Below are positions 12,001 to 14,490 of a stretch of DNA of 14,490 nt, piece after piece; within the stretch, counting starts at the first letter, position 1; every line of letters begins with the position of its first letter. This DNA is from a virus. Taxonomy: Duplodnaviria; Heunggongvirae; Uroviricota; Caudoviricetes. Made by a program: the position numbers. The stretch is taken from the IMG/VR virus record IMGVR_UViG_3300015174_000009; one strand, given 5' to 3'.

Positions 12001-14490
12001 CGGTACTCCCGGTACAGAAAGGCCTCATCCACTGAATAGCCGAGATTCGGATTGACCATGGCGAGGTTTTCCATCAGCAGGTTAGCCCCGCTTTCCACCA
12101 TTTCAGGAGGGTGTTCAAATATCACCGGCAGAAAGTGCGGATCATGAATTTTGCCGTCGCGCACATCCCGGGCGTACTGCAGTTTCTGTCTGAACACCCC
12201 GGCGGGCGGTTCATTCGACTGGGTGGTCGTATACACCACAAACCCTTCCGGGCGGGAGGCAAGGCCGCCTATGGCTTCACGTAACATGTCCTCCGCCTTG
12301 CACTGCTTGCCAAACAGCCACAACTCATCAATCAGCGTACCCACGGACTTGATACCGGACACCGTATTCGGATCGGCTGCCACCACCTTCAGGGTGGTGT
12401 CCGTCACTCGGTGGGTGATGGTCCGGATATGGGTCTGTACCTGGCAGAGGTCATCCAGATCATCGTCACGTCGTACCATATCCCGGGCAGGGTTGAAGGC
12501 GTTGGCCGCCACCTCCACAGTCGGGGCCAGAATCGTGTAACCCGCCGCCTGCCGCCAGTTCAGTAACAGTGCAGTCATCATGATCCCCGCGGCCAGCGTG
12601 GACTTCGAGTTTTTCTTGGGGATAAGGATAAAAACTTCCTTGATATGGCGTACACCGGTCTGCGCATCGTAGGAGCCAAACAGGGCCGCCACCAGGTCAA
12701 ACACCCACGGTGCACAGGACTCCCCGAACGTAGGGCTACCAGGTGCATCCACAATCCGCAGTTGTTTAAAAATCGCCAGGGCATGTGCGGCCTCGTCCGG
12801 ATAAATCGGATCCGGAATAATCGACAGCCCCTTTTTCAGGCGCTCTGCCCAGTCCGGGCAGGCTGTGCTCCATACAGGTATCATCCGTTGCCCTCATTAT
12901 CGTTATTCACCACCAGTCGGGGGGGCGGTGGCACCGCAAAACGGTTAGCCGCTTTTTTCGCGGCATCACCTTTTGCCGATTTTTTCCCGGTATCCCCTTT
13001 TTTATGGTGCGTGAACTGCGCCAGACGCCAGGCCGCATCCAGTGCCAGTTTCGGATCAATGCAGAGGTTTTCCACCAGGATCCGCCCCATGGCTTTCACC
13101 GGATCGGGAAGACCATCCTCCATATATTCAATACCAGGAGACATCACCGCGGACGGTGGCATCTCCAGATTGTTTTCGTCCGGCTGTGGTATTGCAGCCG
13201 CCTCACGGCGACGGGGTTTATCCTCCTGCTCTGATTTTTTCTGCCGGTAAACAGGAACCTCATCCACCTCCACCGTCTCGCATTGTTTACGGGCTATAAA
13301 CGCAAGCACCTCAGGATCTTTTGCCAGCTGCGAGCCTTTAACCCTGGCGGTCTTCGCCGAATAACCGGCGGCAATGGCTGACGCTGTTTTGTTTTTCCCG
13401 GACATGAGCGCCAGCGCAAATTTTCGTTTTTGCGTTGTCAGCACAGCCTCCTCCCGGGTCCAGAACGCACTCAGCCGGGTATGGTTCAGCCCATTTTTCC
13501 CGGCGTCTCATGCCGCAAATGTTAACTGCTGCCTGGTTAACATTTGCTGAAAAAGCCTGTTAACATTTTTTCCGCACAACAAACTGAATAATAAAGATAA
13601 AAACCGCAAAAATGCCCGGGCAGCCAGTTAACATGTTAACTGCCCTGAAACGGGAATTTTTTCTCTGCGTGAGAGGGGGCGCGGTGTCCAAAGCGATCGT
13701 TTTTTACGCCGGATGATACCCCCCCGGGTTGGGTTACAGTCCGATGATGTCGTCCTCTCTGCCACTACCTCCGGACACCTCCGGCAGCGTCGGGTCCGGC
13801 ATACCACTCGCCGCTTCACGAGCAGACTTTTGTCGATGGCATTCGGCACAGAGCGTCCAAAGATTCGTCTCCTCATTACCACCACCGAACTGAAGTGCAA
13901 TTCGGTGATCGAGTTCACTGTCACAGAGGTCAACCACACGACCACAGATACAGCACTGCCCGGCGTCCCTCAGCCAGATATGACGCTTGAGGGAAACACG
14001 TGCACTGCCACTGACACGACGCTGCTCCCCCTTCAGAATATTCACCCGTCGGGTATTCAGTGTTTTGATTCTGCTCTGGAGTGTACGAAGCTCAGCCATG
14101 TAAAATCCCCGTCATATGGCAATCAGTAAAGGAAATAAATATGTCATCGAAAAACCGGACCCGCAGAACCACAACCCGCAATATCCGTTTCCCCAATCAC
14201 ATAATTGAACAGATCAACATCGCCCTTGAGCATAAAGGGTCCGGTAACTTTTCAGCGTGGGTTATTGAAGCCTGCAGGAGAAGGCTGGCAACAGATGCAA
14301 CGCATCTGCGCCCGGCCAGCATGACAAATAACGAGAAATGAACGTTCGGTTTCTTCCACCATCGCACCGGACAGGCGACTATGAGGGGACAACGCCGCGC
14401 TCCGTTAACGCGGTAAACCCCGGTGTGTATCGTTTTTGATTATCCCCGCACACTCGCGCAGAGGAGTCTCCCTGTCGGGCTGCGGTCTCT

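Follow-up and report, generated by a model that had tools for sequence, protein, structure and literature searches.

A YlcI/YnfO (DUF3950) family gene antisense to the packaging genes of a lambdoid Escherichia coli prophage

The closest described relatives of the gene considered here are ylcI (b4589, DLP12) and ynfO (b4533, Qin) of Escherichia coli K-12, and the identical ORF of phage lambda at 48109-48303 on the minus strand, which carries no annotation in NC_001416. Of small phage genes set against their surroundings, mnt in the immI region of phage P22 is a lysogen-expressed gene that runs against its neighbours within the late region. In Listeria, the 65-aa protein TerI (orf65), encoded antisense in the lytic module and expressed in the lysogen, blocks packaging through the terminase (bioRxiv 10.1101/2025.02.27.640495), and in phage-inducible islands the PICI protein Rpp mimics the DNA-binding domain of TerS and redirects helper packaging (PMC6739421). 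No experimental work on any member of the YlcI/YnfO family was found in the literature, and ynfO was still described as uncharacterized in 2024 (PMC11551758).

The gene, its family and its neighbours

The window, that is, the whole stretch of 14,490 nt analysed from the IMG/VR virus record IMGVR_UViG_3300015174_000009, is a lambdoid E. coli prophage sequence with an HK97-style HNH/TerS/TerL packaging block. The gene and its neighbours are located as follows:

14141..14341, plus strand: YlcI/YnfO (DUF3950) coding sequence, from ORF and translation; 66 aa plus stop, product MSSKNRTRRTTTRNIRFPNHIIEQINIALEHKGSGNFSAWVIEACRRRLATDATHLRPASMTNNEK
14130..14133, plus strand: Shine-Dalgarno sequence AGGA, 7 nt 5' of the ATG, read from the sequence
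14100..14140, no strand: 41-nt spacer between the divergent HNH and YlcI start codons
13734..14099, minus strand: HNH endonuclease gene (Pfam HNH, E 2.7e-7; PHROG 589, E 1.8e-44; RefSeq annotation)
12881..13444, minus strand: small terminase subunit TerS, Terminase_2 type (Pfam, PHROG)

The ORF opens with the ATG at 14141 and closes with the TGA at 14339-14341, coordinates identical to those of RefSeq WP_000095741.1, which is labelled "YlcI/YnfO family protein" and found at 100% identity in many E. coli chromosomes. A GTG at 14081 was ruled out as an upstream start because homology and all the relatives begin at the ATG at 14141. At the position equivalent to the window AGGA, BP-4795 has the purine-rich GAGGAAAG, despite differing bases around it.

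An earlier note on this DNA had called the gene DUF3950/YlcI-like, and this was confirmed when a Pfam search was run: the protein scores 69 bits against DUF3950 (PF13132; cut-off 25, E 3.1e-19), and also exceeds the cut-off of the NCBIfam model NF041551 (YlcI_YnfO_N) with 35.2 bits (cut-off 30); PHROG 949 is matched at E 8e-33. The protein carries the residues R16, I25, F37, A39, W40, V41, and C45, invariant in a diverse alignment of 30 family members, together with the nearly invariant NFSAWVxxAC. In comparison with the lambda, ynfO, and BP-4795 alleles, pN/pS over codons 1-50 is 0.08-0.17, with 46-67% of the synonymous sites changed; the amino-acid sequence is under strong purifying selection, the synonymous sites being near saturation. 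Between unrelated contexts, DNA homology sets in precisely with the ATG and stops at about codon 50. Given the Pfam and NCBIfam scores, the pN/pS values, and these bounds of homology, the ORF is a real gene and not a chance reading frame.

The gene is already known and annotated in RefSeq, and it stands in its usual place and orientation. The surrounding 1.1 kb is matched in 1944 of 5426 complete E. coli genomes (about a third), and across Enterobacterales, in contexts unrelated to one another, the protein retains 35-50% identity. The genomic setting typical of the DUF3950 family, a small gene that stands alone in a prophage or satellite and is read in the direction opposite to the operon beside it, is found here as well.

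In a record 100% identical over positions 13400-14490 of the window, the YlcI gene is the only one of 16 annotated coding sequences on the plus strand, in agreement with the earlier description of it as the only plus-strand gene. The distance of 41 bp given there to the divergent HNH start codon also holds, since the HNH ATG lies at 14097-14099 on the minus strand and the YlcI ATG at 14141. HNH, the divergent neighbour, is the first gene of the packaging block, and the spacing is identical in 76 IMG/VR loci, BP-4795, and JLK-2012. The premise that YlcI-like genes share the orientation of the late operon proved wrong: the gene is opposite to the terminase genes in 77 of 77 informative IMG/VR loci, in K-12 (ylcI on the minus strand and nohD on the plus, ynfO on the plus strand and nohA on the minus), and in BP-4795, JLK-2012, and lambda. 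Orientation against the late operon is the norm of the family, and all the lambdoid contexts examined retain the antisense placement.

The K-12 and lambda copies belong to the same Pfam and NCBIfam families as the window protein, share 86.5% identity with it over residues 1-52, and occupy, as in the window, the edge of the packaging start that faces the lysis genes, running against the terminase genes. They differ in standing beside a lambda-type cos and a Nu1-like TerS (the lambda-type copies are 199 nt from cosN, opposite Nu1) and in being followed by DUF1398 and bor, whereas the window has the HNH gene between YlcI and cos, another C-terminal tail, and no co-oriented gene downstream. The GC content dips modestly at the YlcI gene, to 46-52% from 54-58% in its neighbours.

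Such an arrangement might also mean that antisense transcription itself is the main function, as an excludon or through interference with the late transcript entering HNH/terminase, the peptide being incidental. From the lysis genes to HNH, the whole of such a transcript would be complementary to the late mRNA, and in K-12 RNA-seq data ybcW and ylcI overlap convergently and are listed as a convergent excludon (PMC12288877). The strong selection on the amino-acid sequence at near-saturated synonymous sites and the conservation of the protein across Enterobacterales argue against this reading, as does a search of Rfam, which gave no match at the window YlcI gene; it is highly improbable.

The predicted fold of the protein

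Three segments of the coding sequence, all on the plus strand, are relevant to the fold:

14174..14194, plus strand: TRNIRFP, codons 12-18, putative beta-strand and candidate DNA-reading segment
14195..14305, plus strand: codons 19-55, two predicted helices (19-32 and 37-55) with a GSGN turn between them, from the AlphaFold2 monomer
14291..14338, plus strand: variable C-terminal tail, codons 51-66, from DNA and protein alignments

A ribbon-helix-helix (RHH) fold had been proposed for this protein. In the AlphaFold2 monomer, codons 19-55 reach pLDDT 70-80 and form the two helices after an extended segment, at the places expected for a strand-helix-helix topology of about 45 residues, and in the family alignment R16 of TRNIRFP is invariant, with I15 and F17 nearly so. 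The named Foldseek matches are mostly RHH proteins (NikR, ParD, Arc, VapB, YiiF, Mnt, CopG), all with E of at least 0.85; hhalign places FNLRWP of Arc/Mnt in register with TRNIRFP in a weak alignment (E 0.017, probability 2.7%), and among the 30 family members weak PHROG matches, below any reliable threshold, are HicB-like in 12 and Arc-like in 3. Against the proposal, no strand was formed in the monomer, and a tandem-repeat AlphaFold2 model of a "dimer", built to bring out the intersubunit beta-ribbon from an alignment that covered one of the two copies, was uninformative: its pLDDT was 46, and a sheet was missing from it. The Pfam RHH families gave no match at E up to 10, and PDB sequence searches with the single protein and with the 30-member profile found no relative and no RHH protein. 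The weak matches point one way, none of them significant, and the putative RHH fold is plausible.

Of the RHH proteins, P22 Arc and Mnt resemble the window protein in size and in the predicted strand-helix-helix layout, with N-x-R-[FW]-P in register before helix A, and both are among its top Foldseek matches. The similarity in sequence or structure is below significance, and DNA binding by YlcI is putative; in addition, a target gene of the ant type is absent from the window, and the family-invariant W40 and C45 are not features of Arc/Mnt.

The RHH antitoxins (ParD, the C-terminal domain of HicB) offer another comparison, with an N-terminal DNA-binding head, putative in YlcI, and a variable tail; the HicB-like PHROG matches and the presence of ParD among the Foldseek matches, all sub-threshold, point the same way. 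YlcI might be an antitoxin-like adaptor whose RHH head is joined to a variable tail that binds a partner encoded downstream, e.g., the DUF1398 proteins YdfO/YbcV, in which case the window copy would be an orphan whose partner has been lost. In Nu1-type prophages a same-strand DUF1398 gene does follow the YlcI-type gene, at 42 nt in the ynfO type, and the tail appears to change with the downstream module, since homology to the lambda, ynfO, and BP-4795 alleles breaks near codon 50. Simple mosaic recombination would also be expected to give a changing tail, however, and the window gene differs from the antitoxins in lacking a toxin gene beside it on the same strand: the gene annotated next on the downstream side is convergent, with no co-oriented ORF annotated there, as in all the HK97-type loci. 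No toxin family was detected, and DUF1398 is not known as a toxin. The adaptor reading is very unlikely.

Candidate operators and transcription signals

The following sequences were considered as possible operators or promoter elements:

13515..13642, no strand: five GTTAACAT copies in the HNH-TerS intergenic stretch, including the 12-nt inverted repeat GCAAATGTTAAC/GTTAACATTTGC, from a repeat search
14101..14106, plus strand: TAAAAT, candidate -10 hexamer, conserved in BP-4795
14011..14039, plus strand: CTGACA-17-CAGAAT, candidate promoter-like match (scan, 9/12 positions) inside the HNH coding sequence, about 100 nt 5' of the ATG

The suggestion that YlcI acts on the palindromes at 13517-13640 could not be upheld. 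Within the window the GTTAACAT copies are confined to the HNH-TerS stretch, and their positions are kept in BP-4795 and JLK-2012, but they are missing where a YlcI gene of 92% identity, its tail almost unchanged, has a lambda-type cos as its neighbour (loci L084 and L085). They follow HNH/TerS rather than YlcI and were for that reason rejected as operators of YlcI; judging by position, they are probably cos or TerS recognition sites. Near the YlcI start no perfect palindrome was found, and no GT-N4-AC 12-mer is present in the window; GTGT-N4-ACAC and TGGTA-N2-TACCA are both missing from the window, lambda, ynfO, and BP-4795. A motif common to the upstream DNA of the window and the lambda-type upstream region was not found either. 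The HK97-type and lambda-type upstream sequences are unrelated while the putative DNA-reading residues are identical, so that the two have no upstream operator in common.

Transcription independent of the late operon, as formerly suggested, follows from the position of YlcI on the strand opposite to that minus-strand operon. The candidate -10 element TAAAAT is present at the place given for it, but no acceptable -35 hexamer lies at 16-18 nt from it, for which reason the promoter scan made no call there. The same scan returned two sites in the region, with 0.8 expected, so the CTGACA-17-CAGAAT match is not significant. No intrinsic terminator was found 3' of YlcI, the downstream fold being no better than that of shuffled sequence (z = 0.5), and no canonical promoter, terminator, or palindromic operator was recognised at the window gene. 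Of the promoter and terminator of its own that a moron-type gene carries, the locus has weak promoter-like matches and no intrinsic terminator, together with the modest GC dip. YlcI homologues are transcribed without induction; besides the K-12 overlap cited above, a differential-expression table of O157:H7 includes a 228-nt DUF3950 gene (PMC7709258).

With this transcription counted in its support, the reading to which we give somewhat better than an even chance is that the window gene is an expressed single-gene YlcI/YnfO unit with its own promoter and that its product is an RHH-type dimer regulating by sequence-specific DNA binding. Its promoter would lie within the 41-nt spacer or immediately 5' of it. 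Because the gene runs against the late operon, the protein could be produced only while the late genes are silent or weakly transcribed, which would mean the lysogen or the early stage of an infection. Each subunit of the dimer would have a basic arm at its N-terminus, a strand near TRNIRFP, and then the pair of helices, and the protein would probably control its own synthesis and perhaps the adjoining genes. The gene, its family, the purifying selection, and the conserved antisense placement are demonstrated by the analysis; we infer the fold, the DNA binding, the timing, and the target.

Satellite relatives and the packaging start

In P4/PICI-like satellites a distant relative occurs as a lone antisense gene between alpA and an icd-like/primase operon. 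In 15 of 37 loci, against 1.3% of control windows, 12-bp palindromes of the form GTGT-N4-ACAC are found at a distance of 30-100 nt upstream, and in a Buttiauxella/Leminorella/Serratia subgroup two TGGTA-N2-TACCA palindromes are present, one of them at the start codon; another protein could be the binder. This regulator-like context, with its lone antisense gene and upstream palindromes, was counted for the regulator reading.

Five clusters of satellite proteins, down to 48% identity, have DUF3950 fused to the N-terminal DNA-binding domain of TerS. Residues 2-51 of the window TerS are 62% identical to the C-terminal domain of these fusions (BLASTP against P0188, E 7e-18), and one fusion-bearing satellite lies within a prophage whose HNH/TerS is of the type seen in the window. 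The satellite proteins P0188 and P0215-P0218 contain a copy of the N-terminal domain of a helper-type TerS, comparable to the likeness of Rpp to lambda TerS. The likeness is limited to these fused relatives and excludes the window protein; Rpp, moreover, has a winged-helix domain and no DUF3950 domain.

The fusions bear on the possibility that YlcI is coupled to DNA packaging, binding either DNA near cos or TerS itself and modulating or blocking packaging, e.g., by excluding related phages or satellites when expressed in the lysogen. The YlcI gene adjoins the packaging start in two unrelated terminase systems, next to the lambda-type cosN opposite Nu1 and, across the 41-nt spacer, beside HNH opposite a Terminase_2-type TerS. 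Listeria TerI supplies a precedent in design: this protein, likewise of about 65 aa, is read in lysogens from the strand opposite to the lytic module that surrounds its gene, but the host is another one and the module early rather than late, so the likeness is a design analogy only. On the other side, two different cos/terminase types are accompanied by almost the same protein core, and for that reason YlcI cannot read a cos-specific sequence; the GTTAACAT repeats do not travel with it, and near most of the distant relatives neither a terminase nor a lambda cosN is present. At the satellite fusion genes, matches to helper-cos-like DNA are at chance level only, and neither the window protein nor three relatives matched any of the PADLOC-DB defence models with the limit set at E 0.1. 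A packaging role in this sense is unlikely. The proposition that proteins of the YlcI family bind DNA, are produced in the lysogen or soon after infection, and work with or against TerS at the packaging start is quite unlikely. Its hints are the position next to cos in two unrelated terminase systems, lambda included, and the natural fusion, in helper-embedded satellites, of the domain to a copy of the DNA-binding domain of the helper TerS.

As a finding, an annotated gene common in E. coli and in its usual position carries small weight. What is left of interest is the function of the whole family, K-12 ylcI, ynfO, and the lambda ORF without annotation in its reference record included, for which the conserved antisense place beside the packaging start and the satellite fusions with the TerS domain provide concrete and cheaply testable hypotheses. 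If the link to TerS were true, the window gene would encode a factor for the specificity or the exclusion of packaging and not an ordinary regulator of transcription.

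YlcI gene and its prophage setting

The window comes from a lambdoid E. coli prophage whose late genes, for HNH, TerS (Terminase_2), TerL, capsid, portal and tail proteins, lie on the minus strand. Its 1.1-kb segment 13400-14490 is present at 100% identity in many E. coli chromosomes, and is matched in 1944 of 5426 complete E. coli genomes and in 145 phage records, mostly of Stx-converting phages. Across the span of the window only one of the 16 CDS annotated in RefSeq is on the plus strand, the YlcI ORF, as the earlier note had stated, and the 41-bp gap that it gave between the divergent HNH and plus-strand starts is also confirmed (14100-14140).

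Features of the YlcI locus and the adjoining intergenic region
13515-13642: five GTTAACAT copies between the HNH and TerS genes (repeat search)
14011-14039: weak promoter-like match inside the HNH gene (promoter scan)
14100-14140: 41-nt spacer between the divergent start codons of HNH (start 14099, minus strand) and YlcI
14130-14133, plus strand: Shine-Dalgarno-like AGGA, 7 nt 5' of the YlcI ATG
14141 (ATG) to 14339-14341 (TGA), plus strand: YlcI/YnfO ORF, 66 aa (ORF translation)

The YlcI ORF is a real gene. A Pfam search bore out the proposed DUF3950/YlcI-like identity of its product (69 bits against DUF3950, cut-off 25), which also scores 35.2 bits against NCBIfam YlcI_YnfO_N (cut-off 30) and matches PHROG 949 (E 8e-33); in E. 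coli chromosomes identical over 13400-14490, RefSeq names exactly this ORF "YlcI/YnfO family protein" (WP_000095741.1). Within codons 1-50, 46-67% of synonymous sites versus 5-9% of non-synonymous ones are changed relative to the lambda, ynfO and BP-4795 alleles (pN/pS 0.08-0.17). Between HK97-type contexts, with HNH and Terminase_2-type TerS genes, and lambda-type contexts, with lambda cosN and a Nu1-like TerS gene, nucleotide homology runs from the YlcI start codon to near codon 50, and the DNA 5' of the gene and its 3' tail are unrelated. It is therefore the protein, and not a DNA element, that is under selection; that YlcI acts through antisense transcription is very improbable. A longer, 86-codon version starting at GTG 14081 was rejected because DNA and protein homology with all relatives begins at ATG 14141.

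The DUF3950 family is small (99 clusters at 50% identity among 1.84 billion representative proteins) and essentially restricted to Enterobacterales, with members of 35-55% identity in Salmonella, Klebsiella, Serratia, Pectobacterium, Xenorhabdus, Pantoea, Tatumella, Buttiauxella and others; ynfO was still listed as uncharacterized in 2024 (PMC11551758). Around the gene, the YlcI stop is followed by about 200 nt of non-coding DNA (window 14342-14490; 8943-9140 of the compared locus L001) before the next gene, which is convergent and on the late strand, and the late mRNA before HNH comprises roughly 440 nt with no annotated late-strand ORF, antisense YlcI included. A 25-nt imperfect inverted repeat (76% complementary; 14050-14074 and 14163-14187) brackets both divergent start codons. 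Its left arm falls within the HNH gene and is restricted to the HNH context; its right arm, coding sequence of YlcI codons 8-16, is conserved throughout. The repeat may be due to chance.

Antisense position and the neighbouring repeats

The gene had been thought to be unusual in opposing the late operon, with which YlcI-like genes were said to be normally co-oriented; the opposite orientation is in fact the usual one. In K-12, ylcI (minus strand) is paired with nohD (plus strand) and ynfO (plus) with nohA (minus), and both ORF52 of BP-4795 and gp69 of JLK-2012 are opposed to HNH/TerS with an identical 41-nt spacer. Among 80 YlcI loci from IMG/VR, 76 have an opposite-strand HNH gene upstream at identical spacing, one has a Nu1-type TerS gene opposite and the remaining three are truncated where the contig stops. 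In phage lambda, an intact ORF of 64 codons that matches K-12 YlcI at 100% identity lies 199 nt from the right cohesive end (48109-48303, minus strand, of NC_001416.1; 2210-2404, minus strand, of its locus L168); NC_001416 has no CDS for it, and other lambda-like records label it hypothetical protein or YlcI/YnfO family protein. Prophages of the Nu1 type invariably have the lambda cosN some 200 nt 5' of the YlcI start codon. To lie antisense on the lysis side of the packaging start, at its edge, is thus characteristic of the YlcI family and nothing peculiar to the window.

The lambda right end was also encountered on contigs about 3.5 kb or 48.4 kb long in dozens of assemblies of unrelated taxa (L090-L117, L120-L126, L146, L154), including Kitasatospora, Cohnella, Pedobacter, a Nanosynbacter MAG and a 3566-bp Arcanobacterium 'plasmid', which looks like spike-in or control-DNA contamination and not biology. 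On the lambda reverse strand a perfect palindrome, TGATAATGATTATCA, is located at -163 from the YlcI ATG, just inside cosQ at the right end, and is also present at K-12 ynfO; it may resemble the Fur-box consensus.

The GTTAACAT copies, at 13519-13640, have no further counterparts in the 14.5-kb window, and their relative arrangement in the HNH-TerS interval is preserved in BP-4795 and JLK-2012. At two loci (L084, L085) where a YlcI gene 92% identical to the window allele, with a near-same C-terminal tail, stands beside lambda-type cosN and a Nu1-type TerS gene, the GTTAAC motif is absent; the repeats therefore travel with the HNH/TerS module. The earlier proposal that YlcI may act on these palindromes (13517-13640) is not supported; judging from their position, the simpler explanation is that they are cos sites or sites recognized by TerS. 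A block, TTTTTTCTCTGCGTGAGAGGGGGCGCGGTGTCC, at 13655-13690 is conserved with a few changes in the HNH-TerS spacer of a helper prophage (L173), and the region of GTTAACAT and TTTTTTCTCTGCGTGAGAGGGGGCGCGGTGTCC is probably the cos and TerS-binding region of an HK97-like packaging system.

Predicted fold and relatives of YlcI

An AlphaFold2 monomer built on a 14-sequence alignment (mean pLDDT 67) has a basic, non-helical N-terminus followed by predicted helices at residues 19-32 and 37-55. In a ribbon-helix-helix (RHH) subunit the strand forms only in the dimer, and the modelled helix layout would be that expected of such a subunit; a tandem construct mimicking the dimer was uninformative (pLDDT 46). 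Foldseek gave nothing significant in PDB or BFVD (best E 2.4 and 0.85), the named, non-significant matches being mostly RHH proteins (NikR, ParD, Arc, VapB, pCXC100 ParB, YiiF, TCP domains, Mnt, CopG and mycobacteriophage "RHH" proteins). Using hhalign, the family profile aligned weakly with Arc and Mnt, TRNIRFP in register with FNLRWP (E 0.017, probability 2.7%), and 12 of 30 DUF3950 members weakly matched a HicB-like PHROG and three of 30 Arc-like PHROGs. No Pfam RHH family was matched even at E 10, nor did PDB sequence and profile searches find an RHH protein. The RHH fold read earlier from the sequence is rated here as likely rather than established. That YlcI is an antitoxin-like adaptor seems improbable.

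The DUF3950 genes occur in three classes of genome context. Class A comprises lambdoid prophages, the Nu1 type having a co-oriented DUF1398 gene (ydfO/ybcV) 3' of YlcI; class B, P4/PICI-like satellites in which int, alpA, a small icd-like gene and the primase operon share one direction and DUF3950, flanked by alpA and the icd-like gene, is the single opposite-strand gene; class C, sites dispersed over chromosomes or plasmid-like DNA. The class B loci (L130-L166) have 12-bp palindromes, GTGT-N4-ACAC, as candidate operators; they occur 30-100 nt 5' of the DUF3950 start at 15 of 37 loci, versus 1.3% of random windows from the same loci; their central four bases come in eight versions, and they are often multicopy, with four in one satellite (L005, ~4560-4700). 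A Buttiauxella/Leminorella/Serratia subgroup (L139, L141, L147, L155, L156) has two TGGTA-N2-TACCA palindromes about 35 nt apart, at about -48 and -12 from the DUF3950 start, one to either side of the presumed promoter and the second of them at the start codon. Such arrangements are typical of a dimeric DNA binder that controls its own gene, though another protein could bind there instead. Both palindromes are absent from the window, lambda, ynfO and BP-4795, and the presumed DNA-reading position is N in lambdoid RNIRF versus G in satellite KGIRF. A DUF3950-like ORF (38% identity, E 2e-4) was also noticed in Pasteurella phage Pmp7 (OR544138.1; 4001-4159, plus strand, of L171), on the opposite strand within a CDS labelled 'transcriptional repressor', in a satellite-like element of 10.7 kb; of the two readings, one may be a mis-annotation.

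Packaging, expression and the regulatory reading

Five protein clusters (P0188 and P0215-P0218, the latter 48-86% identical to P0188) combine DUF3950 with the N-terminal DNA-binding domain of TerS, in a copy that shares 62% identity with residues 2-51 of the window TerS. The fusions take up the same antisense slot in satellites (L005, 4714-5103, plus strand), and one of them (L173, 9001-9429, plus strand) belongs to a satellite lodged between the TerS and tail genes of a prophage with the same HNH/TerS type as the window, an arrangement described as helper-embedded satellites (bioRxiv 10.1101/2022.07.18.500453). Because PICI Rpp proteins are TerS-domain mimics redirecting helper packaging (PMC6739421), the fusions, which appear undescribed so far, may by analogy be Rpp-like packaging redirectors. 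A packaging-linked role for YlcI itself is an unlikely, minority hypothesis: the gene is cos-adjacent in two unrelated terminase systems, satellites carry the fusions, and the Listeria prophage TerI, a 65-aa antisense-encoded packaging inhibitor, is a precedent in design, but the YlcI core is near-identical beside different cos types, the majority of the distant DUF3950 relatives have no terminase nearby and the fusion genes have no helper-cos-like DNA beside them.

YlcI homologues are transcribed without induction: K-12 RNA-seq data list ybcW-ylcI as convergent transcripts that overlap (PMC12288877), and an O157:H7 differential-expression table includes a DUF3950 gene of 228 nt (PMC7709258). 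At YlcI the promoter scan of the window returned only the weak match inside HNH; the TAAAAT suggested as a -10 element (14101-14106) is conserved in BP-4795 but has no -35 hexamer, and no intrinsic terminator was found 3' of the gene in the window. Since the late operon reads through YlcI in antisense, the protein would be made mainly while late transcription is off. Of the earlier overall reading, the family, the likely fold and independent transcription are retained, and the unusual orientation and the palindromic target are given up. YlcI is a routine member of an established family and had been annotated before; on balance we lean slightly towards its being a separately transcribed, RHH-type DNA-binding regulator.
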